Part shown: piece after piece, positions 1 to 30,463 of the stretch
Layout: each line of letters opens with the position of its first letter
Numbering within the stretch: the stretch's first letter is position 1
Assembly (NCBI GenBank): GCA_017520505.1
Contig: JAFXFN010000024.1
Coordinates: 209-64,208, forward strand
Source of the DNA: Clostridia bacterium
Lineage (GTDB): Bacteria > Bacillota > Clostridia > Oscillospirales > CAG-272
DNA: 64,000 bases
Direction of reading: 5' to 3'
Translations under genes and position numbers: made by a program
The notes under the pieces: model-generated
The model's input: only the letters and a program-made list of their open reading frames with translations
The model's database searches: none
What the model was told of the DNA's origin: nothing

Positions 1-59
1 GTGGCGCAACATCATATTTGCGAAGCAAATGCATCATATCGCCGCAGGCGATGCATCAT
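1..59. repeat. Word-hairpin array A, cut by the window edge. Word (A/G)CATCAT at 9, 31 and 53, separated by 15-nt hairpins
   Basis: The word recurs with a 22-nt period. The spacers are ATTTGC-GAA-GCAAAT (16-30) and ATCGCC-GCA-GGCGAT (38-52). Confidence 0.7.
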
Positions 60-63
60 TTAA

Positions 64-130
64 TTCCCCCTCGTGTATTGAAAAACACCGAAAACTGTGC
101 TATAATAAAATCAAAAAGGTGGTGAAATGC
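64..130 (+). promoter_or_regulatory. Conserved promoter/5'UTR module, copy A (-35 TTGAAA 78-83, 17-nt spacer, -10 TATAAT 101-106, GGTGGTG RBS)
   Basis: Near-identical to 1060-1126 and 4619-4684. It has a consensus sigma-A hexamer pair and ends at the ATG of the downstream ORF. Confidence 0.75.
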
Positions 131-796
131 ATGAGCCTAATAACAAAAGAAGAAGTATTTGCGATTATGGGCAAATATTATGGTAACGCCTATTGGAGAG
201 AAGCTGTCAGCAACGGATATTCTCAAGAGCAGTTGCTTTTTGTATCTGAAATTCTTGACGAAATTAATGCCTTGGGATATAATTTTAGTAACTTGCATCG
301 CCTGACAGACCACGAGGATATTCGCTTTATTCCCATCGTTCTTAAATATATCCATCAAAGAAAGTGGTGGGTTGGTTCGTTGCTGTCTGCATTTCATTGT
401 CGTACTTATTACGAATATACTCCTGAATTGATTGAATTATATAAAAGAGACGAATTTGATAAGTACAAATGGGATATCGGAAATGCACTTTTATTGTGTA
501 GACACAAAAAGTTTATTCCGCAATATCTTGAAGTAGTCAATGATCGATCGTACGGTAAGGAGCCCGACTTGATAATGGGAATTTTATGCCATTTTAAGGT
601 GAAGCAAGCCCTTCCTCGGTTATTAGAACTTTATGAGCGCTATCCCGATATTTGGCGATGGGATTTACTGAAATATGGTTGGTACTTTAAAGACAAGAAT
701 ATCATTCCATATATTGAACCCTATTTAACTTGTGATAATGGTGAGTATCGCAGTATGGCAAAAAAAGCTATGGGAAAGTTTTCTGATTCTCAATAA
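131..796 (+). CDS. Hypothetical soluble protein (222 aa), cassette gene 1
   Basis: ORF 29..796 trimmed to the ATG at 131, which lies 7 nt after the module RBS. AT-rich. I recognise no family. Confidence 0.55.
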   Translation: MSLITKEEVFAIMGKYYGNAYWREAVSNGYSQEQLLFVSEILDEINALGYNFSNLHRLTDHEDIRFIPIVLKYIHQRKWWVGSLLSAFHCRTYYEYTPELIELYKRDEFDKYKWDIGNALLLCRHKKFIPQYLEVVNDRSYGKEPDLIMGILCHFKVKQALPRLLELYERYPDIWRWDLLKYGWYFKDKNIIPYIEPYLTCDNGEYRSMAKKAMGKFSDSQ

Positions 797-856
797 ATTT
801 CACTGTTTACCAGTCAAAACATGATGGCATCCTTTTTGTCAATACGTCTCAAAAAG

Positions 857-888
857 AAAAGCACTTCGTAAGAAGTGCTTTTGTTTTT
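857..888 (+). terminator. Rho-independent terminator after cassette gene 1
   Basis: AAAAGCACTTC-GTAA-GAAGTGCTTTT stem-loop followed by a GTTTTT run. Confidence 0.7.
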
Positions 889-1053
889 GGAAATGAAGCG
901 CACCTGCGGTGCATGAAAAATGAAGCATGGCTTCGCCCTATGGAGCGTGGCTTCGCCACACGGAAAGGTAACCTCGCGCTTCGCTTCATGCGAGCATAGC
1001 GAGTGCTTCACGGCGCGTGCGCCGCTTCATATCGGCGTACGCCGATGCTTCAT
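889..1053. repeat. Word-hairpin array B (left arm ATGAAGC at 893 and 920; right arm GCTTCA[TC] at 983, 1005, 1024 and 1047)
   Basis: The two arms carry reverse-complementary 7-nt words. Spacers include GGCGC-GT-GCGCC (1012-1023) and ATCGGCG-TA-CGCCGAT (1031-1046). Confidence 0.7.
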
Positions 1054-1059
1054 TCAAAA

Positions 1060-1126
1060 TTCCCCCCTCGTGTATTGAAAAACACCGAAAACTGTGCTAT
1101 AATAAGATCAGAAAGGCGGGTGGAAT
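1060..1126 (+). promoter_or_regulatory. Conserved promoter/5'UTR module, copy B (-35 1075-1080, -10 1098-1103)
   Basis: Same block as 64-130. TTGAAA-N17-TATAAT, ending at the ATG at 1127. Confidence 0.75.
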
Positions 1127-1573
1127 ATGAAAAAAATAATACTTTTCGTTTTACTTTTAGCATTATTTATGCTTTCCTCCTGTGCCAAAATCGAAGAACC
1201 AAAGGCGCAAGAAGTCGCAAATCAGCTTTTTGAATACATCGAAAAAGGTGACTACTCCTCCGCATCTGCGTTGTTTTGTGCGAAAGAGGATGGCGGAAAA
1301 TCATTCTCTGAATTTTTGGATGAAATCGAAATTGAAACGGGACTTGATTTTCAATCCAATATTGAAATTTTAGAATATTCAGAATATCACTCCGCGCCGA
1401 ATAGCTATTTTGGAGTAGTTTGCGCTGACTTTAATGTAAAAGCAATTGTTGACGGAGAAGAAATAACGATGTATGTTGGCGTTCTTGAAAACGAAGATGC
1501 AATTGAATGTTGCCAACTTGTTATATATGCCGAAAATAATGATTATCAATTCCTTTGTGATTACATAGATTGA
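1127..1573 (+). CDS. Small lipoprotein (148 aa), cassette gene 2
   Basis: Signal peptide with a lipobox (LFMLSSC). Sits directly behind module copy B. Confidence 0.7.
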   Translation: MKKIILFVLLLALFMLSSCAKIEEPKAQEVANQLFEYIEKGDYSSASALFCAKEDGGKSFSEFLDEIEIETGLDFQSNIEILEYSEYHSAPNSYFGVVCADFNVKAIVDGEEITMYVGVLENEDAIECCQLVIYAENNDYQFLCDYID

Positions 1574-1706
1574 CGGCAAATTTTTTGTAAATGCGGCGTA
1601 AAATAAAAATCCGTTCTCATTGAGCAAGGCTGATAATGACAGTTATCTGTAAAAGAACCGGAATTTGCCGTACAAATTCCCTGCTTGTTATATATAAGAC
1701 AAAAAC

Positions 1707-1826
1707 TGCCGAAGGCAATAGCGCCTGTCGTAAGACAAATATCACTGATCAGCAGTATCTGCTGAATGCAATAGAACTCGCCGCAGGCGAATAAAACCGG
1801 CCAAGTGTACTTTAGAACACTTGGCC
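1707..1826. repeat. Degenerate hairpin array E, ending in CGCC-GCA-GGCG + AATAAAAC + a long hairpin (1799-1826)
   Basis: Hairpins TGCC-GAA-GGCA (1707-1717), TGTC-GTAA-GACA (1726-1737) and TCAGCAG-TAT-CTGCTGA (1749-1765). Word ATATCACT at 1739. The terminus is the same as array D at 30.6 kb. Confidence 0.55.
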
Positions 1827-2011
1827 GAGAGGGCGGATTTTCAAATGAATAATTAATCGCTTTTCGCTGAGGTGGAAAGCTTTTTTGCTGTAGGACGGTG
1901 TCTTGATGCCGCCGCTTTTATTGAATTCAGGATTCTTTTCTATTATAGTCTTTCTATTATAATACTTTTTTGATTTTGTAAATAGTTTTTATCAGTTTTA
2001 ACAAAATTGAC

Positions 2012-2737
2012 TTATTTCTGTGAAGCACGCTTTTCAAGCTCTAAAATTGCGCTCTCATACGCACGTTTTTGAAGCTCTAATGCAATTTCGTTTTTGGGCT
2101 TATCTCCGCTGATCTCAAAAAGCTTTGCCGCCACGTACTCAAGCACGTGTGGATTTCTGACTAAGATCGGACCTATAAGCGTGGTGGCGATAAAGTTTTT
2201 ATAAACAAATCCCTCGTTTTTGGAGTCTTTACCGTGTCCCGCACCGAAAACTACCTTAAAAAGAGGATTTTCGGTATCGTAAAACTCGGAGCATCTATTG
2301 ACAAAGCCAAGCGTCTTTTTCTCAAAAAGCTCGCTTTCAAAGAGACAATCTGACAAAATTCTGCGTTTTTTGTCTCGGTGTGCAGAATATCCTAAAATTC
2401 CAATCGCCTGCGTTTTATCACACTCGGTTTCAATGAATTTTCCGAAAAGCTCGACAGCTGAGCCCGTCGCAAGCAGCATTTTGCCATCCTCAACGAAAGC
2501 TTTGAGCTCGTCTTTTTTGGGCATAAGCAGATCGAGCGCACGGTCGAGCGAGTTTTCCGTACCGCTACCGAGATATATCATGTGATATTTTGAGAGGTCA
2601 GCGGAAAAAATATCGTCGGTTTTGTCGATTTGTATCTTAACTCCGCATTGTTTTACGTATTTTTCAACGGCGGATACGTTACCGTGGTCGCCGTAAAGGT
2701 TTAAAAGGTCCGGGTATAAAAACAAGACGTTTATCAT
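2012..2737 (-). CDS. gatD: Lipid II isoglutaminyl synthase, glutamine amidotransferase subunit GatD (CobB/CobQ-like GATase)
   Basis: 241 aa. The N-terminus MINVLFLYPDLLNLYGDHGN is typical of GatD. Lies downstream of murT. Confidence 0.85.
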   Translation of the reverse strand: MINVLFLYPDLLNLYGDHGNVSAVEKYVKQCGVKIQIDKTDDIFSADLSKYHMIYLGSGTENSLDRALDLLMPKKDELKAFVEDGKMLLATGSAVELFGKFIETECDKTQAIGILGYSAHRDKKRRILSDCLFESELFEKKTLGFVNRCSEFYDTENPLFKVVFGAGHGKDSKNEGFVYKNFIATTLIGPILVRNPHVLEYVAAKLFEISGDKPKNEIALELQKRAYESAILELEKRASQK

Positions 2738-2895
2738 GTTGTTGCCTTTCTGTTATTGGGGTAATTATCTTCACGGGAGGATTTTCTTCCCTGTAAGGTT
2801 GAGTGAGCCAAATATGGTTTATATCATAGGGACAAGCTTTCCCCGACGGTACGTAATTGCTTACACGTTCTGATTTGCGTTAATCGTTCAAATCA

Positions 2896-4233
2896 TCACT
2901 TCTTAGGCAAAATACACATCACCTTATCACGATCCGAAAAGCAGGTGATGAGGAAAAGCTCGGTATTTTCGTTTGTCGGGGCGCTAACGAAAATTTCAGT
3001 TGCCTTTTTGATATCGGGCTCGACGCTGATTTTTTTCTTGGGGATTTCCGTATAATCGAATCTGACGGCAAGATCGTGCGCATATTTACCCGAAAGGACG
3101 ATCTTTTCGCATCCCGATGCAAGTAAGTCGAAATTAATATCAAAAAGCCAGCTTGTTTCGCAGGTGTAGTACTTTCTGCTGATGGAATCGACCACGAACA
3201 TTACGACAAATGGATTCTTACATCTTACGGCGTAATCAATAGACTGATTATAGGAAATGGAGTTTTCGTGCTTTGAGGTCAGGAGCGTGAAATTGCATCC
3301 ATTCACCTTACGAGTTTTGACACGTCCGTTTTTCATGACGTAACCGCCGAGAAGTTCAGCTGTTTTTGATCTGTCGTAGCCAAGATGTGTGAGCAAGGTA
3401 TATGCGGCGAGCAGATTATAGACGTTATATGTGCTGCCAAAGGCAAGGTCGATCTTATACTCACCGTCGAAAACGATATTGAGCTTATCAAGATTGACAG
3501 AGGTTACCCTGCAAAGCGCATCCTCTGTGCGAAGAGCGCAGTTTTTGCACTCGAATTTGCCGATATGAGCCATATTATAGTATTCATACTCAAGCGGATG
3601 CTTACAAATGGGACAATAAGCGCCGTCGTTATACTTGCCGATCGGCTTTTTAGTGGAGTACTTATTTTCGTCCATAGAGAAATAAACCACGTTTTCAGGT
3701 GCCACGACTTTTGAAAATCTGCTGACGAGCGGGTCGTTTGCGTTGAGAATGAGGGATGTTTTGGTGTCGATGGAGTCAAGAAGTATGTTATAGATCCACT
3801 CACTATGCGCATTTCGGGTCATCTGGTCACGGTAGAGGTTGGTGATGACGTAGTGCGTGGGGGTGAAATGGCGCATCGTGAGGCGTGCATAACGCTCGTC
3901 GCTCTCAAGAAGCACGGCATCTGCCTTGACGACGCCCTTTAAGGTACAGTTACAGAGCAAAAATGTCGCAACGCCCTCCGTTTGATTGGATCCTTCCTTG
4001 TTATATATGACGTTTACGCCATGTCCTCTGAGTGCGTGCGCAATCATTTCAACGGTTGAGGTCTTTCCGTTGCTGCCCGATACCGCAATGATGGTTTTGG
4101 GCATTTTGAGCTTTGAGAGGATATTTGGAAAGAGCTTGAGAGCTATCTTTCCTGGCATACTTGAGCCCTTGCCGACAAGCTTGCCGACACGATAAAGACA
4201 TTTGCAGAGTATTACTGCGATCATTGTTTTCAT
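2896..4233 (-). CDS. murT: Lipid II isoglutaminyl synthase, Mur-ligase-type subunit MurT
   Basis: Mur ligase P-loop GSNGKTST and a Cys4 ribbon (CPICKH...CKNC). 445 aa. Paired with gatD. Confidence 0.85.
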   Translation of the reverse strand: MKTMIAVILCKCLYRVGKLVGKGSSMPGKIALKLFPNILSKLKMPKTIIAVSGSNGKTSTVEMIAHALRGHGVNVIYNKEGSNQTEGVATFLLCNCTLKGVVKADAVLLESDERYARLTMRHFTPTHYVITNLYRDQMTRNAHSEWIYNILLDSIDTKTSLILNANDPLVSRFSKVVAPENVVYFSMDENKYSTKKPIGKYNDGAYCPICKHPLEYEYYNMAHIGKFECKNCALRTEDALCRVTSVNLDKLNIVFDGEYKIDLAFGSTYNVYNLLAAYTLLTHLGYDRSKTAELLGGYVMKNGRVKTRKVNGCNFTLLTSKHENSISYNQSIDYAVRCKNPFVVMFVVDSISRKYYTCETSWLFDINFDLLASGCEKIVLSGKYAHDLAVRFDYTEIPKKKISVEPDIKKATEIFVSAPTNENTELFLITCFSDRDKVMCILPKK

Positions 4234-4403
4234 GATGTGTTCCTTGTTTTTTTATGTTATTTTGAGTTTGTTTTTGGCGTGTTTAAGGAGGAAATCAGCC
4301 CACGTCAAGTCTGGCAAGACGTTTTATTTTACGAACCGCCCTTCGCAATTTTACATACACAATTATTTTACTACTTCTTTTCTTTTTTGTCAACACACTT
4401 TTG

Positions 4404-4440
4404 AAAAAATAGAGCAAGTCAAAGACTTGCTCTATTTTTT
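4404..4440. terminator. Bidirectional terminator/insulator hairpin
   Basis: AAAAAATAGAGCAAGTC-AAA-GACTTGCTCTATTTTTT, a perfect 17-bp stem flanked by A and T runs. Confidence 0.7.
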
Positions 4441-4443
4441 CAA

Positions 4444-4611
4444 CTAAATCCGCCTTCGCCGGAATAAATCCACTATCGTGGATGAAATCGCTACGCGATG
4501 AAATCTTGCTTCGCAAGGTTAAGGGAGGCGGATTTAATTTCATCTGAAGCCGCAGGCTGAAGATTTCATCCGAACGGAGTGAGGATTTCATCGCGCCTTG
4601 CGCGATTTCAT
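4444..4611. repeat. Word-hairpin array C (left arm ATGAAAT at 4482 and 4498; right arm ATTTCAT at 4537, 4563, 4585 and 4605)
   Basis: The arms carry reverse-complementary words. Spacers include CTTGC-TTC-GCAAG (4505-4517) and CGCGC-CTT-GCGCG (4592-4604). Confidence 0.7.
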
Positions 4612-4618
4612 TAAAACC

Positions 4619-4684
4619 TTCCCCCTCGTGTATTGAAAAACACCGAAAACTGTGCTATAATAGAATCAGAAAGGTGGTGGAAAT
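4619..4684 (+). promoter_or_regulatory. Conserved promoter/5'UTR module, copy C (-35 4633-4638, -10 4656-4661)
   Basis: Same block as 64-130 and 1060-1126, ending at the ATG at 4685. Confidence 0.75.
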
Positions 4685-5206
4685 ATGAATAATATTCTCT
4701 ATGAATTACATTTTAATTGGTCGAGTTGCCTGATATTATTTATTCCTTTGCTTGTCGGTCTGGGATTTTTCTTCTGCTTTAAATGGTATCCTGCTCAAAA
4801 CCCGGGAGTGAACATAAAGGGAGCTCACGGATACGTAGGATATATTTTCTTTAAATGGCTAGGTTGGATTGTGGGCGTCTTTTGTTTCCTCCTTTTTGTG
4901 TCCATATTAGTTGCTCATATTGGTGATTATTCGGAAAAGAAAAACGCGATAAATAATGATCAAGTATTGGTGGTAGAGGGCTATGTGGAAAAGTATCATG
5001 CTATGCCGTTTGAAGGACACGACACCGAATACTTTGAAATCAATGGCGTGTATTTTGAATATTCAAATTTTGAATTGTACAACGGCTATAATCGTCCTGC
5101 TTGTTATGGTGGTGTTGTTACTGAAAACGGGCAATACTTAAAAATAAAGTATGTTACTGATATTACAGGTAAGAATATAATTTTATATATTGAGCGAATT
5201 GAATAA
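4685..5206 (+). CDS. Membrane protein (173 aa), cassette gene 3
   Basis: Two N-terminal hydrophobic helices followed by a soluble C-terminal domain. Sits directly behind module copy C. Confidence 0.65.
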   Translation: MNNILYELHFNWSSCLILFIPLLVGLGFFFCFKWYPAQNPGVNIKGAHGYVGYIFFKWLGWIVGVFCFLLFVSILVAHIGDYSEKKNAINNDQVLVVEGYVEKYHAMPFEGHDTEYFEINGVYFEYSNFELYNGYNRPACYGGVVTENGQYLKIKYVTDITGKNIILYIERIE

Positions 5207-5220
5207 GGCATCTTTTTTTC

Positions 5221-5300
5221 AACGAAATTCGCCTACGGTGAGTGAAATTTGGCTTCGCCATATGAAATAGCTTCGCTGTGAAATGTTCGCTTTGCGAACG
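5221..5300. repeat. Half word-hairpin array F (word TGAAAT x4 with short hairpin spacers)
   Basis: GAAAT/TGAAAT at ~5224, 5243, 5262 and 5279. Spacers include GGC-TTC-GCC and GTTCGC-TTT-GCGAAC. Confidence 0.55.
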
Positions 5301-5301
5301 T

Positions 5302-5327
5302 GGGCAAATATTATGGTAATGCCTATT
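5302..5327 (+). pseudogene. Remnant of a cassette-gene-1 paralogue (26 nt, 25/26 identical to 169-194)
   Basis: GGGCAAATATTATGGTAA[T/C]GCCTATT matches codons ~13-22 of the ORF at 131..796. Weaker similarity continues for ~10 nt on each side. Confidence 0.6.
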
Positions 5328-11801: not shown

Positions 11802-12410
11802 ATGGATTTTACGAAAACGTATAACGTCATATTTTTTACGGGGGCGGGAATAAGTGCCGAATCGGGAATCCCCACCTTTCAGTCACAGCCCGGAATAAGA
11901 GCGAAATTACATAGGTCGTTTGCAAACGAGCATCCCGAGGAATTCAGAAATACCGTGGGGCAAATGGTGGAAAGCTGTGAAAAAGCAAAACCGAATGCGG
12001 CGCATATTGCGATTGCTGAGCTTGGCTGTCCCGTTATCACGATGAACGTTGACGGACTTCACACGAAAGCAGGCAGTAAAGACGTAATTGAAATTCACGG
12101 GGTTCTTCCGACGAAAGAACAATTAAATGAGAAAAATTTTCCTTTTGAATACAGAGGGATAGTTCTGTACGATGACGTAGCGCCGAGATATAAGGATGCG
12201 ACGGAGCTTGTCGAATGTCTTGAGCTTGATAATTCGGTTTTTGTTATCGTCGGGGTGTCATTTTACACCGAGATAAGCAAGATGCTTCATCTGGCGGCGA
12301 AAATTGCGGGCGCTGAGATCATTATTATCAACGACAATGCATCCGTCAAAGTACCTGCGCTTTGCAAGGAATTGAAAAAGCGGTTTTCCTGCTTTGACGG
12401 TGATAAATAA
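11802..12410 (+). CDS. Sir2-family NAD-dependent deacylase-like protein, short form (202 aa)
   Basis: GAGISAESGIPTF, TMNVDGLH and EIHG motifs. No CxxC...CxxC zinc module. Confidence 0.7.
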   Translation: MDFTKTYNVIFFTGAGISAESGIPTFQSQPGIRAKLHRSFANEHPEEFRNTVGQMVESCEKAKPNAAHIAIAELGCPVITMNVDGLHTKAGSKDVIEIHGVLPTKEQLNEKNFPFEYRGIVLYDDVAPRYKDATELVECLELDNSVFVIVGVSFYTEISKMLHLAAKIAGAEIIIINDNASVKVPALCKELKKRFSCFDGDK

Positions 12411-12427
12411 ATTTAAGGAGCGAGAAT

Positions 12428-13489
12428 ATGAAAAAAATATTTTTTATCGTTTTATGTATCCTGACGGCACTCTGCGCCGTTTCCTGCGGTGAAACCGATA
12501 CCGCAAAGAATGAAAACAGAGCTTGCACGGTGTGCGGCTTGCTCGGTGCGGGGGACGGACTTGTGTTTGAATCGGGCGGTAACGGCGAATGCTCGGTGTC
12601 GGGACTTGGCACGTGCGCTGACGCAGAGTTTACTATACCTACTTTCTCGCCAAGCGGTGACAAGGTCACCTCGATTGCCCCTCGTGCGTTTTACAACTGC
12701 ACGTCGCTTGTGAGCGTTCATATACCCGATACGGTCGCAAGCATCGGCGATGGCGCATTTACAGACTGTAAAAATCTGAAGAGTATAACCGTTCACGATA
12801 CGGTTACGAGTATCGGAAAAGAGGTTTTTCTCGGCTGCTCCGAGCTTCTTGATGTCACCCTTCCGAACACCACCGCATCAGTCGGCGAAGGTATGTTTTC
12901 GGGCTGTATCAAGCTTGAAACGGTGAGCTTGCCGAGCAGTGTGACGGCTATTGAAAAAAATGCATTTTCGTCGTGCGAGAGTCTTTGTGGCATCACGCTT
13001 CCCGAAAATTTGAAAAGCATCGGAGAAAATGCTTTCAGCGCTTGCTTGTCACTTCGTGACGTTAAGATTCCCGATACTGTTACGGAGCTCGGCGACGGAG
13101 CTTTTGCTGAATGTGCAAGCCTTGAAAGCGTTAAGTTATCCGCAAGCATAACGAAGATAGGCGGATATGCGTTTAAAAACTGTAAGGCACTTAAAAAAGC
13201 CGATATTCCGAGTTGTGTTACGGAAATCGGCACGGAGGCGTTTTGGGACTGTATATCTTACGAAAGGATCGTTATTCCCGCAAGCGTTAAGATAATTGAA
13301 AAAAACGCATTCAGAAACTGCGGTGAATGTGACGGAACGGCGAGATTTGAAAAAACGGACGGTTGGATGTGCTTTGATTCATCGGATGTTGTCATAGATC
13401 CCCTTGACCTTTCCGATAAAAGGCAAAATGCAATTTTTATCACGTTTTTGTATAATGACTTCACGTGGAAAAGCTCCTACTTTATGTAA
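12428..13489 (+). CDS. BspA-type leucine-rich-repeat lipoprotein
   Basis: Lipobox LCAVSCG. Repeated ~23-aa units (IPxxVTxIGxxAFxxCxxL). Confidence 0.75.
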   Translation: MKKIFFIVLCILTALCAVSCGETDTAKNENRACTVCGLLGAGDGLVFESGGNGECSVSGLGTCADAEFTIPTFSPSGDKVTSIAPRAFYNCTSLVSVHIPDTVASIGDGAFTDCKNLKSITVHDTVTSIGKEVFLGCSELLDVTLPNTTASVGEGMFSGCIKLETVSLPSSVTAIEKNAFSSCESLCGITLPENLKSIGENAFSACLSLRDVKIPDTVTELGDGAFAECASLESVKLSASITKIGGYAFKNCKALKKADIPSCVTEIGTEAFWDCISYERIVIPASVKIIEKNAFRNCGECDGTARFEKTDGWMCFDSSDVVIDPLDLSDKRQNAIFITFLYNDFTWKSSYFM

Positions 13490-18799: not shown

Positions 18800-19135
18800 A
18801 TGTTGAAGATTAACAACGGAAAAAGATTTTTACAGTCAATAGAAAAATATACCTGTGTCTGCAATTCCGACGACAGACTTCCCAATCTTGCGGGGTATCT
18901 CCGCTTTATGGGAATGACCGACGAGGAATACGCAAAGCTTTGCGAGAAGTTCCCGAAGCAGGCACAGCTTGCCATGTCGGTCTTTGAGGACGAGGCACTT
19001 AATTCGGGAACGAAAAAAATATCGGCATCCGTGCTCAATCTCTATCTGAAAAGCCGTTTCGGCTACGGCGGAGATGACAAGCACGATGACGACGGAATTT
19101 TAAGCGTTGTGTGCGAGCACAGCGACGGCGAATGA
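18800..19135 (+). CDS. Putative terminase small subunit
   Basis: 111 aa. Its stop overlaps the TerL start (ATGA). The call rests on position and size. Confidence 0.5.
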   Translation: MLKINNGKRFLQSIEKYTCVCNSDDRLPNLAGYLRFMGMTDEEYAKLCEKFPKQAQLAMSVFEDEALNSGTKKISASVLNLYLKSRFGYGGDDKHDDDGILSVVCEHSDGE

Positions 19136-20448
19136 AAAAGCTTTACTTGAAGGGCACGCCGAACAAAAAGCAGGAGCTGTTTTTCTCATCAAAAGCCAAG
19201 TTCACCGCCTACGGCGGTGCAAGGGGCGGCGGCAAAAGCTGGGCGCTTCGGCGCAAGCTCGTGCTTTTGTGTCTTCGCTACGCAGGGATAAAATGTCTTA
19301 TAATCAGACGAAGCTTTCCTGAGCTTCAGTATAACCACATACTGCCGCTTCGTGCGGAGCTTGGTGAGTGCGTGAAGTATTCAGAATCGGGGAAATGCTT
19401 TAAATTTCCCAACGGCTCTGTTTTGAAGCTCGGATATATGTCCGATGACGGTGACACACTTCAGTATCAGGGGCAGGAATACGACATAATCGCCCTTGAC
19501 GAGGCAACACAGCTGACCGAATACCGATTTTCAGCTTTAAAAGCGTGTCTTCGAGGCACGAACGGTTATCCGAAAAGAATGTATCTTTCGTGTAACCCCG
19601 GCGGTGTCGGTCACGCCTGGGTGAAGCGTTTGTTCATCGACAGAATATACCACGACGGGGAAAACCCCGATGATTACGCCTTTATTCAGGCGACGGCTTA
19701 TGACAATACCGTGCTGATGGAAAAGGACGGCGAATATATAAACACTCTGAAATCACTTCCGAAGGAGCTTCGTGCCGCCTGGCTTGACGGCAGGTGGGAC
19801 CTTTTTGAAGGACAGTTCTTCTCTGAAATTTCAGAGGATATCCACGTCATTCCGCCGTTTGAGCTTCCGTACGGTGTGCGCCGTATCGGCGGACTTGACT
19901 ACGGCTTCGATATGCTTGCGTTTGTCTGTCTTGCCATTGACGAGGACGGACGTGTTTACGTTGAGCGTGAGTACAGCGAGCCGAATTTGACCTTGTCATC
20001 TGCGGCACATAAAATAGCCGAGATGTGCCGAGGGCTTGATGTTGACTATATTTCCGCATCGCCCGATTTATGGAACAGACGGCAGGACAGCGGACTTTCG
20101 GGCTTTGAGATAATGGCAAACGTTCACGGTATGCCGCCGCTTATAAAGGCGGATAACAGGCGTGTTCCCGGTTGGCGTGCGCTTCGTGAATATCTCAAGG
20201 CTGACGGCGGTGAGCCGAAAATGAAATTTTTTAAGACGTGCTTTGACACGTTCCGATGTCTTTCATCTCTTACGTACGATAAGACGAAAGCAGAGGATGC
20301 CTCGGACACTCCGCACGAGATAACGCATCTGCCCGAGGCGCTTCGGTATGCGGTGATGTCGAGAATACAGCGTGCAGACACCGCCGAGGAAATGTACAAT
20401 ATGAGAAAAAGACGATATGAAAACAGAAATAATTTGGCAAATTACTGA
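19132..20448 (+). CDS. Phage terminase large subunit
   Basis: Walker A YGGARGGGKSW, Walker B-like DIIALDEAT, and a C-terminal nuclease-like half. Confidence 0.85.
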   Translation: MKKLYLKGTPNKKQELFFSSKAKFTAYGGARGGGKSWALRRKLVLLCLRYAGIKCLIIRRSFPELQYNHILPLRAELGECVKYSESGKCFKFPNGSVLKLGYMSDDGDTLQYQGQEYDIIALDEATQLTEYRFSALKACLRGTNGYPKRMYLSCNPGGVGHAWVKRLFIDRIYHDGENPDDYAFIQATAYDNTVLMEKDGEYINTLKSLPKELRAAWLDGRWDLFEGQFFSEISEDIHVIPPFELPYGVRRIGGLDYGFDMLAFVCLAIDEDGRVYVEREYSEPNLTLSSAAHKIAEMCRGLDVDYISASPDLWNRRQDSGLSGFEIMANVHGMPPLIKADNRRVPGWRALREYLKADGGEPKMKFFKTCFDTFRCLSSLTYDKTKAEDASDTPHEITHLPEALRYAVMSRIQRADTAEEMYNMRKRRYENRNNLANY

Positions 20449-20462
20449 CTTTTAGGAGGTAT

Positions 20463-22037
20463 ATGGAAAATAAAACAAAGGCTTGGGAGCAATACGAGGC
20501 CGGTGTTGAATACAAAAGGCGCATAGGTCTTTACACAACTGTGCGTGAAAACGAGCGCTTTTACAGAGGCGAGCAATGGGAGGGCGTGAACGCAAACGGT
20601 CTGCCAACTCCCGTGTTCAACATCATTAAGCGTATTGTTTCGTATATGATAAGCACCGCCACCTCACAGCCGATAAGTGTGAGCTACAGCGACGATTCGC
20701 TGAGCGTTATCGGCAGTGAACGGCTGAAAAAGCAGATCTCCGACGGTATCGAGCTGCTCAACAAAAACGTGTCGTACAGGCTTGACAAGGACAAGATAGA
20801 GTCGCTTGTCAGGGGTGCTATGCTCGATGCGGCTGTGTCGGGCGACGGGGTGTTTTACACCTTCTGGGATTCCGACATAAAGACGGGGCAGATATATACG
20901 GGTGACATAAGAACGGTTTTGTGCGACAATACGGATTTATTTGTTGCCAACGTGAACAGCCGTGACATTCAAAGGCAGGATTACGTGATGCTCAAGGGGC
21001 GTGACACGGTCGAGCATCTGAAAAAGGAAGCCCTCGAAAACGGTGTTTCGCCCAAGGATGCTGAGAAGATAGTTCCCGACGATACGGAGGGCATAGGTGC
21101 AGGTGAGCTTTTCGACATTGAGAGCGAAAACGATGAATATGCTACGTTTCTGCTCAAATTCAGCCGTGATGAAAACGGATACGTCGTGTGGGAGAAAGCC
21201 ACACAGTCCACCGTTATCAAAACGTGTCAAACGAAGATGAGAAGATACCCGATAGCGTACTTTTCGTGGGAGAACGCAAAGGGCTCATTTATCGGAAATT
21301 CACCCGTTACGGCTCTTATTCCCAATCAGAAATACATCAACAAGGCTTACGCCATGGTGATGAAGCATATGACGGACACCGCATTTTCAAAGGTCATTTA
21401 TGACAAGACTCTCATTCCCGAATGGACGAATGAGGTCGGTGAGGCGGTCGGTGTCAAGGGCGGTGACGTCAGAGGTGCGGCTGTTGCCCTCGGTGCGGGT
21501 AACATGCAAAGCGGATTTCTTGACGTTATCAATCTGACGATGATGCACACGAAGGAGCTGATGGGGGCGACCGATGCCGCACTCGGTGAGGTCGATCCCG
21601 ACAACACCTCGGCTATCCTTGCGCTTCAGGAATCGTCAAACGTTCCGCTTGAAAACATAAGACAGAATCTTTACGCTTGTATTGAGGACCTTGCCCTCAA
21701 CTGGGCGGAGATGATGTTTGAATATTATCCCGAGGGCAGATTCCTGCCCTATGACGATAACGGAGAGAGCAAAAGCGGCAAGATGCCCGACTACGAGCTT
21801 TTTAAAAATTCCGTTATCCGTGCCCGTGTTGACGTGGGGGCGGGCACGAAATACTCGCAGATAGTTGCGGTTAATACGCTTGACAAGCTTTTGTCGGGCG
21901 GATTTATCGGAATTGAGGATTATCTTGAAAGACTGCCCGACGGCATAATTTCCGACAAGCGTGAGCTTATTGAAAAAGCCGTGCTTCGTCAGAAGAGTTC
22001 CGAGCAGACGGAAACGGAGGCAATCGATGGACAATGA
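20463..22037 (+). CDS. Phage portal protein
   Basis: 524 aa, immediately after TerL. Acidic C-terminus. The call rests on position, size and general resemblance. Confidence 0.65.
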   Translation: MENKTKAWEQYEAGVEYKRRIGLYTTVRENERFYRGEQWEGVNANGLPTPVFNIIKRIVSYMISTATSQPISVSYSDDSLSVIGSERLKKQISDGIELLNKNVSYRLDKDKIESLVRGAMLDAAVSGDGVFYTFWDSDIKTGQIYTGDIRTVLCDNTDLFVANVNSRDIQRQDYVMLKGRDTVEHLKKEALENGVSPKDAEKIVPDDTEGIGAGELFDIESENDEYATFLLKFSRDENGYVVWEKATQSTVIKTCQTKMRRYPIAYFSWENAKGSFIGNSPVTALIPNQKYINKAYAMVMKHMTDTAFSKVIYDKTLIPEWTNEVGEAVGVKGGDVRGAAVALGAGNMQSGFLDVINLTMMHTKELMGATDAALGEVDPDNTSAILALQESSNVPLENIRQNLYACIEDLALNWAEMMFEYYPEGRFLPYDDNGESKSGKMPDYELFKNSVIRARVDVGAGTKYSQIVAVNTLDKLLSGGFIGIEDYLERLPDGIISDKRELIEKAVLRQKSSEQTETEAIDGQ

Positions 22038-22356
22038 GCGTTTTACCTCGGAAACGGAGGAGTTTTACGAAAATTTCCCCGACGTTGACCTCGACACGGT
22101 AAGCGATGACGTGTGGCAGAGCGTTAAAAACGGCGAGCGTCTTACAGACGCCTACCGCCGTGAAAGAAACGCCGAGGCGCAGGCGTTAGCCCGTAACGAA
22201 AAGAACCGAATGTCGTCGTCTGGTGCTGTCGGCAAGACGGTGCGCCAAAGAGGCGTTTACAACGAGCGTGACGTGCGTGCGATGAGCCCGAAGCAGGTAC
22301 ACGATGAATACGATAATATCATCAAAAGTATGAGTGGGAAAGGGTTCTTTAAGTGA
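22027..22356 (+). CDS. Putative scaffolding protein (109 aa, charged, helical)
   Basis: ATG at 22027 overlaps the portal stop. Charged, low-complexity composition. Lies between the portal and capsid genes. Confidence 0.45.
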   Translation: MDNERFTSETEEFYENFPDVDLDTVSDDVWQSVKNGERLTDAYRRERNAEAQALARNEKNRMSSSGAVGKTVRQRGVYNERDVRAMSPKQVHDEYDNIIKSMSGKGFFK

Positions 22357-23011
22357 GCGGGGATGGGGTTCACCCTCTCCGTCGGTAGTTGGTTTACCAA
22401 CTACAACCACCATCCCCCAAAGGGGGAGGCATAACATCACATCGGATAAAATTGGCGGAAATGGGTTTGAAAATGAAATGCCTGTGGTATGAAATGTTAT
22501 CCGTTGTGCGGATAACATTGTAAACAATCCTCCCACCAAGCTTACGCTTGGTCCCCCCTCCTTTACACAAGGAGGGCTTGGGTGAACGGGGATGGGATTA
22601 AAACACCTCATCCACCGCAAGCAAGGTGTATCAGGGCGATACACCGGTAGTTGACCTTGTCAACTACAAGTCCCGTCCTTTTCCCGCTGGGGAAGGCAGA
22701 ACATTATAACCGTAGTATCTTGTTTCACATAAATTTTTACGGTGACGGCGCCATGCCCGCACCCCCCACGGCTCGCAGGCGTAACGGTAGTTCGCCCGAG
22801 CCGCCCTGCGGGCGAATGGCGCAGATTTCCTACGGAAATCTATTTGTAACATTTAAGAAGAAACAAGGCAGTAGAAAAATGAAAAAGGTAGAATATCACG
22901 CCGGGCTTGCGTTTTCGGGCGGTGTAGTTCGTGGTTCGCCACGAACTACATGAATCTACCCCTACAAATCACGTTGAATTTAAATAACATAAAAAGAAAG
23001 GAAAAATAAAT
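22357..23011. repeat. 655-bp block of REP-like hairpins inside the phage-like operon
   Basis: GTAG hairpins at 22385-22404, 22647-22667, 22788-22816 and 22924-22949. CCCCTACA at 22959-22966. 24-nt motif at 22449-22472. No credible ORF. Confidence 0.75.
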
Positions 23012-23851
23012 ATGGCTATTACACAGTTTATACCTACAGTGTGGAGTGAAACGCTCTACAGACAGCTTGACAAGGAATATATTGCAGTTAAGAACTGCTC
23101 AAGAGAATTTGAGGGCGATATCAAGAATATGGGTGACACGGTAAAGATCATCGGTCTTAACCCCATCAACGTATTCGACTACACCAAGAATACGGATATG
23201 TCAGCCCCCGGTGAGCTTTCGGACAACGTCCGTATGCTTACCGTCAACCGTGCAAAGGCGTTCAATTTCGTCATTGACGATATTGAAGCGGCGCAGACGT
23301 CTCCCGTTATTATGAAGGAGGCTATGCGTGTTGCCGCAAGCGCACTTTCAAACGAAGCGGACAAGTATATTTACTCCCTTTATGAAACAGTGCCCACGGA
23401 GAACGTCATCAAGTCAGACTCTCTTACATCTGACGGCGTGCTTGACCTTTTGCTGAATGCTCAGCAGAAGCTTCTTGAAAAGAACGTACCCGGCAATGAG
23501 GAGATCGTGCTTGAAGTACCGCCTTGTGTTGCGGCAAAGATCATCAAGGCGAAGATAATGAACGGCACGTCAAACGAGGAGGAGCTTGACAAGGGCTGTA
23601 TCGGCAAGTTCCTCGGCTTCAGGATCTACGTTTCAAACAATATCGTGAACGCTCAGAATTACCACAAGTGCTTTGCAAGAACAAAGCGTGCCATCGCCTT
23701 TGCAGAGCAGATAAACGAGGTTGAGGCATACCGTCCCGAAAAGCGTTTTGCCGATGCTGTAAAGGGACTTCACCTTTACGGCGCAAAGGTCGTTTATCCC
23801 GACGAGATACTTGTGCTTGACATAAGCGTGGGTGACGAAGCGGGCGCATAA
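23012..23851 (+). CDS. Major capsid protein (HK97-fold, P22-coat-like small type)
   Basis: 279 aa. The N-terminus ITQFIPTVWSETL... resembles coat proteins. Position fits the head module. Confidence 0.6.
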   Translation: MAITQFIPTVWSETLYRQLDKEYIAVKNCSREFEGDIKNMGDTVKIIGLNPINVFDYTKNTDMSAPGELSDNVRMLTVNRAKAFNFVIDDIEAAQTSPVIMKEAMRVAASALSNEADKYIYSLYETVPTENVIKSDSLTSDGVLDLLLNAQQKLLEKNVPGNEEIVLEVPPCVAAKIIKAKIMNGTSNEEELDKGCIGKFLGFRIYVSNNIVNAQNYHKCFARTKRAIAFAEQINEVEAYRPEKRFADAVKGLHLYGAKVVYPDEILVLDISVGDEAGA

Positions 23852-24237
23852 TGAAATGCAGTGACGTTTTTGAGCTTGCGGCATCATATATCGGCGAGGA
23901 TGCCGAGGCTGTTGATTTTGCAGAGCTTGCACGCCGTTTACCGCCGATGCTCGGCGCAGTTATATCCGAGCACATTCCGCTTGACAAGATACTGACAGAC
24001 GGACAGACGCCGTACCCCGCAATGGGACAGATACGTGACGGGGAGGATGTTTTTCCGCTGTGTGACGAATGCGCCGTTTTATGCGCCTTGCGCCTCGGCA
24101 TACTTCTTATTGCCGATGAAAACCCCGAGCTTGCTTCGTTTTTGTCGGGTGAATATACACGGGTGCGCTCCTCGGCACTTTCTTCTGTGAGTGCGCACAG
24201 AGAAAGCATAAAGGATATGTATCCCGGTATCGTTTAA
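23851..24237 (+). CDS. Hypothetical phage protein (possible head-tail adaptor)
   Basis: 128 aa. Its start overlaps the capsid stop (TAATG). Confidence 0.4.
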   Translation: MKCSDVFELAASYIGEDAEAVDFAELARRLPPMLGAVISEHIPLDKILTDGQTPYPAMGQIRDGEDVFPLCDECAVLCALRLGILLIADENPELASFLSGEYTRVRSSALSSVSAHRESIKDMYPGIV

Positions 24238-24247
24238 GGAGGTGCTT

Positions 24248-25969
24248 ATGGCATTTTTTAAAAAGAGTCACAAATTTCAGATGACAGTCAGTTCCTTTAA
24301 CGGAACTGACTGTACAAAAAAGGTGACAAATGCAATATCATCCGCTGAATATATGCGTAATTTCAGAATTACGGAAAACGGCAAGCTTCAGAAAAGATAC
24401 GGCTACAAGAGGCTTGCGGATATACAGGGAGAAGATATTTACGTGTCGGACGGTGTAATTTTTTACCGCAACGGTAAGACACTTAACGCATATAATATAG
24501 ATAAGCAGACGATAGTATCATCGTATGAGCTGGGTGTGATGGGCAAGACCGTTTATTTTACATTCGGCGGTGCGGTGTACTGCGTTTGCGAGGACGAAAT
24601 AGTTGTTTATGAATACGGCCGTTTTGAAGAAAGTGAGCCGTACGTGCCGACGATAGCAATTACCTGCTCACCTGACGGCGGCGGTACTTTGCACGAGTCG
24701 CTGAATCTGCTTTGCGATATGGCGAAGATGTCCTTTTCGCCCGACGGGGTTGCGGTGAAATATAAGCTTCCGTCAAGCTCGGTCGGTGTGGAATACGTGA
24801 CGAAGGACGGCTTTGATATGCCTGTGGATAAATATTCATTCGATCTGTCATCCCACACGGTCACGTTTATAGAACCGCCCGAAGGCGGTGTTTCCGACAG
24901 CTTGCAGATAACATTTTTGATGTCGAGCAATTCGATAGACAAAAGAGTGCTTCACGGCCGCCGCTTTTGCATATATGGCGGTGAATTTGACAGCAGAGTT
25001 TTTGCCTACGGCGGTGACAACGTCATATTTTATTCGGATATAACGTCAAGGGGTGCTGATCCGCTTTATTTTCCTGCGGATAACTACATAAAGGTCGGTG
25101 ACGGTACGTACGACGTTACGGCACTCGTGCGCCATTATTCAACGCTCGCCGTGTTCACATCGGGCGATGCGTGGTACATTTCGCCGTCAAGTGTTGACTA
25201 CGACGGCTACAGAAAGCCGTCGTTCCCGATATATCCTCTCAACGGAAGCGTTGGCACGTCGTACGGCTGTGCGGCACTTGTTGATAACTCACCTCTGACG
25301 GTGAACGAGGACGGCGTGTATTTGTGGCGTGCGACAAACGTGCGTGACGAAAGAAACGCCGTGTGTATATCGGAGCGCATTGAACCGCTTTTGCACAGCT
25401 ATTTCCTTGAAAATGCGGGGGTTTTTGACTATCAGAGCAAAAAGGAGCTGTGGATATACAATTTCGGCACGGTTATGATATATAACTACGGTCTTGACGT
25501 CTGGTATGCCTTTGACGGCATTAATGCCGACGTTATGTATGAGCACGGCGGTGAGGTGCTTTTTGCAAATGCCTCGGGTGTTTACATTTTTGACTCCGAG
25601 GTATATACCGATGACGGCAAAGCGTATAAGGCGATATGGCAAAGCGGCTTTGCCAATTTCGGACGGATAGACAAAAAAAGACTGTATATGCTCTACGCAT
25701 CGCTTGTGCCGGAGCCGTGCAGTAATATAAAAATAACGCTCGTTCCGAACACGGGCGAGCGTGTGACCGTCGGAGAAAACGGAGAATTTTCAAATGAGGT
25801 TCTTGACTTTTCAGCCCTCGATTTTTCCGATTTTACGTTTGAATGTGAGGGCAGGCCTGCCCTTACAAGGCACAGAATTCGTCTGCGCCGATTTGACAGC
25901 GTGCGCCTTATAATTGAAAATTCATACCCTGACAGCCGTGCGACAGTAGAAAGGGTAGTGATAAGCTGA
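24248..25969 (+). CDS. Large hypothetical phage structural protein (573 aa; tail/nozzle candidate)
   Basis: ATG at 24248, 6 nt after an AAGGAGG RBS. Beta-rich with repeated aromatic/Gly motifs. I recognise no family. Confidence 0.5.
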   Translation: MAFFKKSHKFQMTVSSFNGTDCTKKVTNAISSAEYMRNFRITENGKLQKRYGYKRLADIQGEDIYVSDGVIFYRNGKTLNAYNIDKQTIVSSYELGVMGKTVYFTFGGAVYCVCEDEIVVYEYGRFEESEPYVPTIAITCSPDGGGTLHESLNLLCDMAKMSFSPDGVAVKYKLPSSSVGVEYVTKDGFDMPVDKYSFDLSSHTVTFIEPPEGGVSDSLQITFLMSSNSIDKRVLHGRRFCIYGGEFDSRVFAYGGDNVIFYSDITSRGADPLYFPADNYIKVGDGTYDVTALVRHYSTLAVFTSGDAWYISPSSVDYDGYRKPSFPIYPLNGSVGTSYGCAALVDNSPLTVNEDGVYLWRATNVRDERNAVCISERIEPLLHSYFLENAGVFDYQSKKELWIYNFGTVMIYNYGLDVWYAFDGINADVMYEHGGEVLFANASGVYIFDSEVYTDDGKAYKAIWQSGFANFGRIDKKRLYMLYASLVPEPCSNIKITLVPNTGERVTVGENGEFSNEVLDFSALDFSDFTFECEGRPALTRHRIRLRRFDSVRLIIENSYPDSRATVERVVIS

Positions 25970-26268
25970 TGACATTTGACGAGGTGGCCCTGATCTCGGA
26001 AAGACACGAGATGCAGATAAAGTCTTTACAGCATCAGATAAATGACATAAAAGAGGTCACAAAGGAAATCAAAACAATGAATGAAACACTTATCGTTCTG
26101 ACAGAGGAGCTGAAGCATACGAACAACACTTTGAAATCATACGATGACAGGCTTGACACCCTGGAGGTAATGCCGAAAAACAGATGGAACACGCTTGTGA
26201 ACGCCGTGCTGACGGCTATCGTATCGGGGCTTGTGGGCTATGCCGCAGCGCATTTCGTCGGAATGTGA
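25969..26268 (+). CDS. XhlA-like lysis-associated membrane protein
   Basis: N-terminal coiled coil plus a single C-terminal TM helix. Precedes holin and amidase, as in xhlA-xhlB-xlyA. Confidence 0.6.
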   Translation: MTFDEVALISERHEMQIKSLQHQINDIKEVTKEIKTMNETLIVLTEELKHTNNTLKSYDDRLDTLEVMPKNRWNTLVNAVLTAIVSGLVGYAAAHFVGM

Positions 26269-26282
26269 AAGGGGGTAGCTGA

Positions 26283-26588
26283 TTGCAGATAAATGATTTT
26301 CTCACCTGGCAGATGCTTGCGGGATTTTCCTGCATGGCAGCAGCGGTGGGAGTTCTTACACAGTTTTTCAAGGGGCTTTTTGATAAATTACCCGTCAGAG
26401 TGCCGACACGTGCGGTATCGTATATATTCGCTCTTTTGCTTCTTTTCGGCACGACGTACTTTACGGCAGATGCAGGGGCGTCGGAGTATTTCCTCTGCCC
26501 CGTCAACGCCGTATTCGTATCGTTTTCCTCAAACGGTGCGTTTGACTTCATAAAATCACTTTCTGACAAGGGGGACGGCGATGCTTAA
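26283..26588 (+). CDS. Holin
   Basis: 101 aa with 2-3 TM helices, immediately upstream of and overlapping the amidase. TTG start after a GGGGGT RBS (the alternative is ATG at 26313). Confidence 0.6.
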
Positions 26589-27609
26589 AATAACGCTTGA
26601 TCCGGGACACGGCGAAAACGCCAACAAGGGCGTGCTTCCCGATTATTACGAGGGAAAAAGGATGTTTCGATTAGCGGAATACTTAAAGGCAGAGCTTGAA
26701 AAATACGGCATTGATGCCGAGATGACGAAAAACAGAGTGAGTGACGATCCCACCCTGTCGTCAAGGGGAAATACGGCTGTGAAAAACGGCTCGGAGGTGT
26801 TTATATCACTTCATTCAAATGCGGCAGGAAGCGAAAAGGCGTGCGGTGTGTCGTCGTTTTACTCCGTAAAGCTTCCCGAAAGCCGTGAGCTTCTGACAAG
26901 GCTCGTCGATAAGGTGACGGCGGTTATGAACAAAAAGACGGGTGTCACATACAAAAGGGGCGTTATGACAAGAACGTACCAAAGCGGAGGCAGGGAGTAC
27001 GACTACTACGGCGTCATCAGAAATTCTATAGGCGGCGATGTCAGATATTCGTTTATCATCGAGCACGGATTTCACACAAACGAAAGGGAATGTGCGTTTT
27101 TGCTCGACGATGAGAATTTAAAGGATATAGCACGTGCCGAAGCCGAGGTCATCGCTGAATATTTTTCTCTTGAAGCGGAGGAAAATACGGAAAACGACGA
27201 GTCGGTTTACACGGTGCAAAAGGGCGATACGCTGTCGAAGATCGCTTCACTTTACGGTCTTTCTGTGACATCGCTTGCCGAATATAACGCCATTGAAAAC
27301 CCCAATCTTATTATTGTCGGTCAGAAGATACGGATACCGAAGGCGGATGAGCAAACGGTGCAGGTGGGTGACATTGTACGGCTGAAGGAGGGAACGGTAA
27401 CGTATTTCCCCGGAGGCAATCCGTTTTCGCCGTGGGTTAAAAATTACGATTATGCTGTTATGAAGGATTCTGACTCGCTTGGTAAGCCCGTTTACCGAGG
27501 TGGAGACCTTTGTGTGCTTTTAGGCGAAAGAGTGAACAGAAAAACAGGAGAACGAGGCGGTGCGATCAAATCCTGGTGCAGTGTAAATTACATAGATAAG
27601 GTTAAATGA
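26581..27609 (+). CDS. N-acetylmuramoyl-L-alanine amidase endolysin (Amidase_3 + LysM + C-terminal binding domain)
   Basis: DPGHG, SLHSNA and EHGFHTN motifs. LysM: [20 protein letters not shown]...GQKIRIP. Confidence 0.85.
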
Positions 27610-27622
27610 AAGGAATATAAAT

Positions 27623-28399: not shown

Positions 28400-28400
28400 A

Positions 28401-29357: not shown

Positions 29358-29509
29358 CGGCTGTCTGAAATTTTTATCGGACGAAAAGGATAGACAGCGG
29401 TTTGCAAAATTAAAAGACAGAGGGTTAAAGCGTGATGTTCTTATCGGAGAAATCACAAATCAGTTGGCTCATATGGCGCATATTTGCGATGCAGTAAACA
29501 AATAATTAG

Positions 29510-29546
29510 CCCCGACAGATTTTAAAGTCTGTCGGGGTCATTTTTT
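29510..29546. terminator. Bidirectional terminator closing the phage-like cluster
   Basis: CCCCGACAGA-TTTTAAAG-TCTGTCGGGG followed by TCATTTTTT. Confidence 0.8.
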
Positions 29547-30460: not shown

Positions 30461-30463
30461 AAG

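Follow-up and report, generated by a model that had tools for sequence, protein, structure and literature searches.

Word-hairpin arrays between terminators and promoters of gut Clostridia belong to the Gut-1 family and may act as folded single-stranded DNA

In a 64,000-nucleotide stretch of DNA from a Clostridia bacterium of the CAG-272 lineage (contig JAFXFN010000024.1, positions 209 to 64,208), here called the window, blocks in which a short word alternates with small hairpins lie upstream of a repeated promoter module. The question is what these word-hairpin arrays are, and whether they act as DNA or as RNA. They are members and variants of the Gut-1 family of Rfam, a dispersed intergenic fold-back element of gut Clostridia. 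The motif family was known already; what is new is the two-halved, polar, fold-back whole with its long-range stem. The reading preferred here, with a probability of about one half, is that the arrays act as folded single-stranded nucleic acid, most likely DNA, and form a boundary element similar to repetitive extragenic palindromes (REP) and bacterial interspersed mosaic elements (BIME).

The window was scanned for any 7-mer found at least three times with a period of 16-30 nt, and the result was compared with shuffled sequences. Eight such chains were found, against a mean of 0.17 and a maximum of 2 in the shuffles. Seven of them are shifted registers of the arrays designated B, C and D, the exception lying at 4326. 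Hairpin spacers between the words were confirmed at 16-30, 38-52, 1031-1046 and 4592-4604. This bears out the original prediction, made from the sequence alone, of short words every 19-26 nt separated by hairpins. Its array coordinates all hold, except that the copy at position 9 reads ACATCAT, not GCATCAT. The anatomy it described is also correct: a full array is an imperfectly palindromic stretch of about 170 nt that bears side hairpins, has a word of its own and lies between a terminator and a promoter. Array A, which is cut by the start of the window, is seen whole on the window's own contig (L001, recovered via the MurT protein), where five transfer RNA (tRNA) genes, for Val, Asp, Phe, Gly and Cys, are followed by a terminator, four copies of ATGATG, four of CATCAT, and the promoter module.

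Membership in Gut-1 (RF01706) was judged by the gathering score of its covariance model, 50 bits. Two places in the window pass, 5220-5289 on the + strand with 59.4 bits (array E) and 30567-30637 on the - strand with 58.4 bits (array D). Array C stays below the threshold, with 35.3 bits at 4461-4527 (+) and 27.7 bits at 4532-4613 (-), and arrays A and B are touched by a single match, of 18.5 bits at 853-924, which covers the terminator hairpin and the beginning of array B. The model does not see these two arrays because their words differ entirely from those it describes. Among 20 related loci the model passes in 9, and its match there nearly always falls on the terminator-proximal half. The Gut-1 consensus, in which hairpins alternate with a word (first UGAAAU, then GUGAAAU), is the word-hairpin unit itself. 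The features that define the family, three covarying hairpins and a repeated UGAAAU-like word, were found here as well: the architecture in all arrays, and the covariation in the 45 that were aligned. The arrays had been thought to fit no repeat class, a view that the Rfam match overturns; a match to a described family is what the original prediction had itself named as speaking against it.

Gut-1 was described in human-gut metagenomes as a probable non-coding RNA of unknown function (Weinberg et al. 2010; PMC2864571), and a literature search by sequence and by name returned nothing on it after that paper. The Rfam family and the element described here share three hairpins with a constant GUGAAAU or GUGAUAU word, and both are restricted to gut Clostridia-type sequences. 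However, the Rfam model covers one half only, as a small RNA on one strand, whereas the element here is usually double, with an inverted second half. Further differences are a closing stem that covaries, a constant location between terminator and promoter, and words that can be wholly different (ATGATG, ATGAAGC, CGATAT, GCTAAAT and others). Reverse-complement words are already present downstream of the modelled part, in the flanks of Weinberg's alignment, so that the palindromic whole was contained in those data, though not described.

Pattern scans place the architecture in more than 100 gut Clostridia genome bins. The scan for three copies of GTGATATT, in one genome per species, returned at least 120 stretches, among which the matches come from bins that are nearly all Acutalibacteraceae, Oscillospiraceae, Ruminococcus, Christensenellaceae or Lachnospiraceae. 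Matches in Bacteroidales, Agathobacter and Loktanella were rejected as plain tandem repeats. The false positive in Loktanella sp. (L067:3300-3450) consists of six direct repeats of GGGTGATATTACGAAAG with a 22-28-nt period and without hairpin spacers, and looks like true iterons.

Read along the flanking genes, the arrays have a common plan: an intrinsic terminator, a conserved half, the centre, a promoter-proximal half and a sigma-A-type promoter. The conserved, terminator-proximal half contains 3-4 copies of the word between short G+C hairpins that are conserved in sequence (CGCC-GNA-GGCG, GCGNAGC, CGGC-GTAA-GCCG). Its terminator-adjacent word is U-rich (AGTTTTATT or AGTTATATT) and doubles as the tail of the terminator. 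The promoter-proximal half evolves fast and carries 3-4 reverse-complement words between longer, freely varying hairpins. A closing stem of about 10 bp arises where the centre folds back onto the outer end of the conserved half. The word period ranges from 16 to 26 nt, about 22 nt being typical. Polarity was counted in 48 full arrays situated away from contig ends. A terminator reading inward is found on one side only in 25 and on both sides in 1, an outward promoter lies opposite the terminator side in 9 and on the same side in none, and the 3' end of a tRNA gene points into the array in 12. All arrays of the window keep this polarity, including array D on the - strand.

In eleven loci (L088, L104, L013, L049, L053, L115, L040, L080, L097, L107 and L120) the array is held in a conserved element of about 400 nt, extending from about -250 to +150 nt around the array centre and having inverted-repeat-like ends, GGnGTGATryTCTTArCGGAG. 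Complementary stems specific to each locus enclose this element, preceded by an A run and followed by a T run, which gives it the look of an insertion into a terminator loop.

Against dinucleotide shuffles, predicted folding is better for arrays A-D as RNA and for arrays B-D also as DNA; folding in both forms had been proposed in the original prediction. The z scores are -3.4 to -3.9 for arrays A-C (about -3.5 for array B, as DNA and as RNA) and -5.1 to -8.1 for array D (-8.1 as RNA, -7.2/-5.1 as DNA). In the predicted folds the left words zip to the right words, leaving the spacers as side hairpins.

This pairing was followed through 45 aligned canonical arrays, using a six-helix structure. 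Standard pairs occupy 97.1% of cells, against 75.9% in shuffles, and the covariation score is 0.509, a level that none of 500 shuffles reaches, against 0.118 in shuffles. When the partners are slid by 1-3 columns, the score falls to 0.03-0.09. The hairpins of the variable half show up to four pair types per position. The long-range stem joins the centre, TT[A/T/C]TATTCGCC, to GGCGAATA[T/A/G]AA at the outer end of the conserved half. At its pair 103:201, 22 sequences have A-U, 13 have U-A and 9 have C-G, and one breaks the pair. The long-range stem and the last local hairpin compete for the same GGCG, so that two folds are possible, and the same three-way arrangement is seen in arrays A and C despite their different sequences. 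Fold predictions alternate between a closed multi-hairpin domain with independent hairpins and a full word zipper, which is a ladder of four-way junctions.

The words fall into about ten types, each matched by its reverse complement in the partner half, and several types can occur in one genome. Beside GTGATATT they include TGAAAT, ATGATG, ATGAAGC, TCGATAT, CGATAT, GCGATAT, ATGATAT, GTGATGTT and GCTAAAT; four words (ATGATG, ATGAAGC, ATGAAAT and GTGATATT) lie within the one 64-kb window. Arrays A and B have near-identical terminator and promoter flanks, and their words are one base apart (GCATCAT and GCTTCAT) in essentially every copy of both halves, showing that the words change together. Since each array has its own word, recognition by a protein cannot account for such a change, whereas physical pairing between the copies can.

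The pattern of changes in the covarying stems bears on whether the paired strand is DNA or RNA. Both sides of the pair have changed in 264 cells and a single side in about 6, and G-U is not more frequent than any other mismatch. RNA stems under selection usually evolve by way of G-U, and the near absence of such intermediates therefore favours DNA. On either strand the 3' half has C-G-closed GAA, GCA, GTA, AAA, GCAA, GTAA and GAAA loops, and the 5' half their complements; on the word-sense strand, 300 loops end in a pyrimidine and 34 in a purine. The loop polarity is thus mirrored at the centre; strand composition does not account for this, nor does a single transcript. The motif on the Rfam strand lies past an intrinsic terminator, its first word being the U tract.

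The most conserved hairpin, with a stem of 2 bp, is literally GCGAAGC or GCGTAGC. The DNA heptamer d(GCGNAGC) melts at 70-76 °C, compared with 39 °C for r(GCGAAAGC) (PMC13037366). The arrays resemble the extraordinarily stable DNA mini-hairpins d(GCGNAGC)/d(GCGNNAGC) of that work in having GCGAAGC, GCGTAGC, CGCC-GNA-GGCG and CGGC-GTAA-GCCG hairpins. However, the natural cases known are single, at phage or plasmid priming sites and phage N4 promoters (PMC13037366), and a chromosomal array of word-separated hairpins, the feature found here, is seen in none of them. The GNA-capped mini-hairpins of 2-4 bp, the Watson-Crick covariation, the site past terminators and the mirrored loop polarity all favour the DNA-level role put forward in the original prediction.

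If the arrays act as folded single-stranded DNA, the G+C mini-palindromes would snap into C-G-closed GNA/GNRA hairpins, and the A+T-rich words of both halves would zip together with the closing stem into either the closed multi-hairpin domain or the ladder of four-way junctions. The conserved half would be far stabler as DNA than as RNA on the AATATCAC strand. Because the arms pair physically, template switching or repair within the strand could use one arm to rewrite the other. Such intrastrand templating would keep the register, and it would make the words identical within an array, complementary between its halves and different between arrays. The cellular role is the least certain part: the arrays may be a REP/BIME-like boundary between transcription units, where dispersed array homology would allow promoter-bearing small-gene cassettes to be gained, lost and truncated. 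An insulator, a recombination substrate or no function at all are the other candidates.

The closest analogy in logic is that to REP, BIME and REPIN (REP doublets forming hairpins). These, too, are short extragenic palindromes in inverted arrangement that fold back as single strands and are dispersed at operon ends. REP sequences, however, are one conserved sequence per genome with a 5' GTAG and a transposase gene of the REP-associated tyrosine transposase (RAYT) type, whereas the hairpins here are free to vary in sequence, the only constant part is a short array-specific word, and each half has 3-4 direct units. The conserved GTAG palindrome is absent from the arrays, and no RAYT-like (Y1 transposase) gene was seen in the sampled array flanks, which are genome fragments only.

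Several observations weigh against the folded-DNA reading. Kinship among the 45 sequences inflates the shuffle statistics, although the slid-partner controls argue against kinship as the source of the covariation signal. The words of L012 and L090 mismatch the partner half by one base. The asymmetry between G-T and A-C mismatches, meant to tell which strand folds, is 10 to 2 by one method and 9 to 14 on the alignment. On the Rfam strand, two U-G pairs contributed by the invariant word ends (TATT/AGTG) can be added to each hairpin, and a half-only subfamily stands directly after stop codons without a U tract, as expected of RNA in a 3' untranslated region. The terminator-proximal half is conserved in sequence across bacterial families, which fits recognition by a factor better than structure alone. 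Template switching is deduced from the pattern of changes rather than seen directly, and folding in vivo, as well as effects on termination, insulation or recombination, are predictions from sequence.

Some of these points belong to the first alternative, in which the conserved half is a structured RNA, either a small RNA or an element of the 3' untranslated region or of readthrough transcripts, whose hairpins and words bind a protein or RNA, the second half being a partner site or an antisense copy. The Rfam match with its covarying hairpins, the half-only subfamily after stop codons, the U-G extensions and the cross-family conservation of the conserved half would all follow from it. Arrays of the GTGATATT type also contain a plausible TG-extended sigma-A promoter (TTGAAA or TTGAAG, 16-17 nt, TGATATTAT or TGGTATTTT), which reads from the variable into the conserved half, for example at 30514-30550 (+) in the window and in L014 and L042; about 19 of 61 canonical arrays are followed by a two-way terminator. 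This promoter is confined to that word type, none having been found in GTGAAAT, ATGATG or ATGAAGC arrays, and about half of the canonical arrays lack a T run past the hairpin in its direction. Transcription from it of an antisense small RNA was for this reason rejected as a general mechanism. Tandem back-up terminators were likewise rejected, only the first word being U-rich and the words of arrays A-C not. The location past a terminator, the scarcity of G-U intermediates, the weakness of 2-3-bp triloop stems as RNA and the mirrored loops stand against a transcript, and the RNA alternative, while it keeps a real chance, is less likely.

The arrays are clearly dispersed. In ten locus pairs from different genomes the homology is confined to about -250 to +150 nt of the array centre, also when translated, and no flanking synteny was found. 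Two copies in L035, within one genome, are 97.6% identical over 166 nt with unrelated flanks, the identity ending exactly at the outer word. Short-read contigs of independent assemblies (L002, L129 and L138) end inside arrays, at window positions 1768, 4489, 1751 and 5223, and the contigs with close MurT relatives are all just 2-4 kb long; the arrays may interrupt assembly, or they may be heterogeneous.

Such dispersal without synteny, the near-identical, sharp-edged copies of L035, the frequent assembly breaks and the subfamily of about 400 nt, with its inverted-repeat-like ends inside locus-specific inverted repeats, could indicate a non-autonomous element, resembling a miniature inverted-repeat transposable element or a REPIN, that relies for its movement in trans on a transposase encoded elsewhere (perhaps an enzyme of single-stranded DNA), targets terminator hairpins and has no host function. 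However, the surroundings of roughly 115 arrays, out to about 4 kb, show no enrichment of any transposase or recombinase family, clustering of the open reading frames (ORFs) in about 115 array loci gave only housekeeping and transport families, and neither a target-site duplication nor an empty site was found for the arrays. Searches of phage and plasmid collections gave one weak match, to a phage contig, and none to a plasmid. Arrays also persist at orthologous sites across species: the window genome, L042 and L091 all have one behind the tRNA cluster Val-Asp-Phe-Gly-Cys, and L045/L114 is a further, syntenic pair. In that pair the conserved halves are nearly the same, and the other half differs in its hairpins, which are shifted by one unit. 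The constant terminator/promoter polarity further suggests selection or strongly targeted insertion. A mobile element without host function is rather unlikely.

Turnover is also seen in the small genes next to the arrays. The 38-nt promoter module occurs exactly three times in the window (70, 1067 and 4625), where none is expected by chance, and every copy lies just downstream of an array, as had been predicted; each scores 11/12 in a promoter scan, with a TG extension. A search of Joint Genome Institute metagenomes with the module gave no match. ORFs A-C, which follow the modules, have no Pfam match, and their relatives are small membrane or zinc-ribbon proteins. The hairpin before array B is identical to the terminator before array A, and the same tRNA cluster is followed, in both the window genome and L042, by tandem units that each consist of an array, a promoter, a small variable ORF and a terminator. 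Relatives with 78-85% MurT identity have a different murT-gatD context, with neither arrays nor cassettes. Array E lacks a second half, being truncated exactly at the centre, and abuts a 37-nt remnant (5291-5327) that is 89% identical to positions 158-194 inside ORF A. It looks as though a deletion had taken away the second half of the array, the promoter and the beginning of an ORF-A-like gene. Strains of the same species are about 100% identical, and the only polymorphism in the region is at array E: compared with window positions 5210-5290, L138:2300-2401 (sample ERZ28654893) has extra sequence right after the stop codon of ORF C, comprising a terminator that resembles the one before array C and a different, shorter word-hairpin unit.

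A bolder idea, and an improbable one, is that the arrays are scaffolds of integron-like gene capture without a known integrase, the word serving as a pairing address; a milder form of it takes them as a self-templating DNA fold-back repeat, a ladder of four-way junctions described for the first time, rather than a small RNA. The arrays do recall integron attC sites, such as the Vibrio cholerae repeats, which are imperfect palindromes of 60-140 nt that flank small variable ORFs, conserve structure more than sequence and act as folded single-stranded DNA. A true attC-like site, at which a site-specific recombinase would capture cassettes downstream of tRNA genes, was among the possibilities raised in the original prediction. 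It would account for the tandem cassettes after the same tRNA cluster, for the conserved structure with variable sequence, for the cut of array E at its centre and for the MurT relatives lacking both arrays and cassettes. This possibility is quite improbable: the called genes within about 10 kb on either side of murT contain no integrase or recombinase domain, and none is enriched near the roughly 115 arrays. There is no attI, and no conserved GTTRRRY-type core is present at the array ends. Each cassette has its own 11/12 promoter, most arrays are solitary, single ones occurring also away from cassettes, and the species' strains are essentially identical across the cassette region. The periodic word-hairpin substructure, in turn, is absent from attC.

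A double-stranded array of iteron, operator or centromere-like type, with a dimeric or oligomeric protein on words every two helical turns or so, which had also been suggested, is very improbable, for the period of about 22 bp, the sequence conservation of one half and the word TATCAC, which resembles known operator half-sites, are outweighed by words that vary between arrays of one genome, with about ten types overall, by a period that varies from 16 to 26 nt, by spacers that need only be palindromic and covary strongly, as no duplex binding site requires, and by a chromosomal context with no adjacent rep or par gene and no plasmid match.

The arrays of the window and the features that adjoin them are collected in Table 1. 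The hairpin at 4409-4436 is picked up by spurious Rfam alignments. The one that abuts array D leads, on the - strand, into the U-rich first word AGTTTTATT, and hairpins of its class recur beside arrays in other genomes.

Table 1. Positions of the arrays, terminators and promoter modules in the window
Feature	Position	Strand	Description
Array A, promoter-proximal half only	1-59	+	rest removed by window start
Array A words	9-15; 31-37 and 53-59		ACATCAT; GCATCAT
Array A hairpins	16-30; 38-52		GAA loop; GCA loop
Promoter module, copy 1	70-107	+	-35 TTGAAA 78-83, TG-extended -10 TATAAT 101-106; drives ORF A (131-796)
Terminator hairpin	857-882	.	flanking A and T runs; scored as terminator on both strands
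Array B, full	890-1053	+	from words and folds
Array B, terminator-proximal half			ATGAAGC at 893 and 920
Array B, promoter-proximal half			GCTTCA(T/C) at 983, 1005, 1024 and 1047
Promoter module, copy 2	1067-1104	+	drives ORF B (1127-1573), lipoprotein-like 148-aa product
Degenerate terminator-proximal half-array	1713-1799	-	adjoins gatD terminator; Gut-1 23.6 bits, sub-threshold
Words of 1713-1799 half-array, + strand			AATAGCGCC, AATATCACT, AATAGAACT, AATAAAACC
gatD terminator	1797-1828	-	adjoins 1713-1799 half-array
Terminator-like hairpin	4409-4436 (approximate)	+	tagagcaagtc-aaa-gacttgctcta + T run, immediately upstream of array C; read from sequence
Array C, full	4445-4611	+	from words, Rfam scores and folds
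Array C, terminator-proximal half	4445-4527		ATGAAAT at 4482 and 4498; closing stem AAATCCGCC/GGCGGATTT
Array C, promoter-proximal half	4532-4611		ATTTCAT x4 at 4537, 4563, 4585 and 4605
Promoter module, copy 3	4625-4662	+	drives ORF C (4685-5206), membrane protein
Array E, terminator-proximal half only	5220-5289	+	TGAAAT at 5243, 5263 and 5279
Array D, full	30463-30640	-	canonical 9-nt word AGTGATATT/AATATCACT; from Rfam, inverted repeats and fold
Array D, promoter-proximal half	30463-30540		AGTGATATT-type words, long hairpins
Array D, terminator-proximal half	30571-30636		AATATCACT x3, short hairpins including GCGAAGC
Array D, closing stem	30541-30553 with 30622-30634		paired segments
Terminator-like hairpin	30636-30664	-	TGCCCAACTT...AAGTTGGGCA, abuts array D

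Array D sits just past the right end of a prophage-like region (about 19000-30200) that includes a P22-like portal gene (20463-22037) and an amidase with LysM (26581-27609). Upstream of the prophage-like genes, at 11802-13489, a SIR2-domain gene, unannotated neighbours and a small helix-turn-helix gene may form a defence locus. A separate hairpin repeat is situated at 63260-63480, in which inverted words, GTAGTT...AACTAC, flank G+C hairpins and a 17-nt sequence, TGGCTCTGCCAACTACA, is repeated exactly, twice in tandem; its GTAG start is REP-like. In several Acutalibacteraceae bins (L015, L042 and L112) a motif GTCATTCGTGTCCGAAAAAGAACTG...GAAAACCGAGG is found after the terminators of small-gene cassettes.

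Rfam has listed Gut-1 from 2010 onwards with no function or host assigned to it. The family can now be placed in assembled genomes of abundant gut Clostridia, and the Rfam model is seen to capture only half of a larger, polar, fold-back element. Should the improbable gene-capture idea be true, cassettes would be inserted, swapped and deleted at folded ladders downstream of tRNA genes in gut Clostridia. If the folded-DNA reading is correct, an RNA family has been misfiled and a common intergenic DNA building block of gut Firmicutes overlooked, which would bear on the annotation of terminators and promoters, on the breaks in assemblies and on the turnover of small accessory genes beside tRNA genes.

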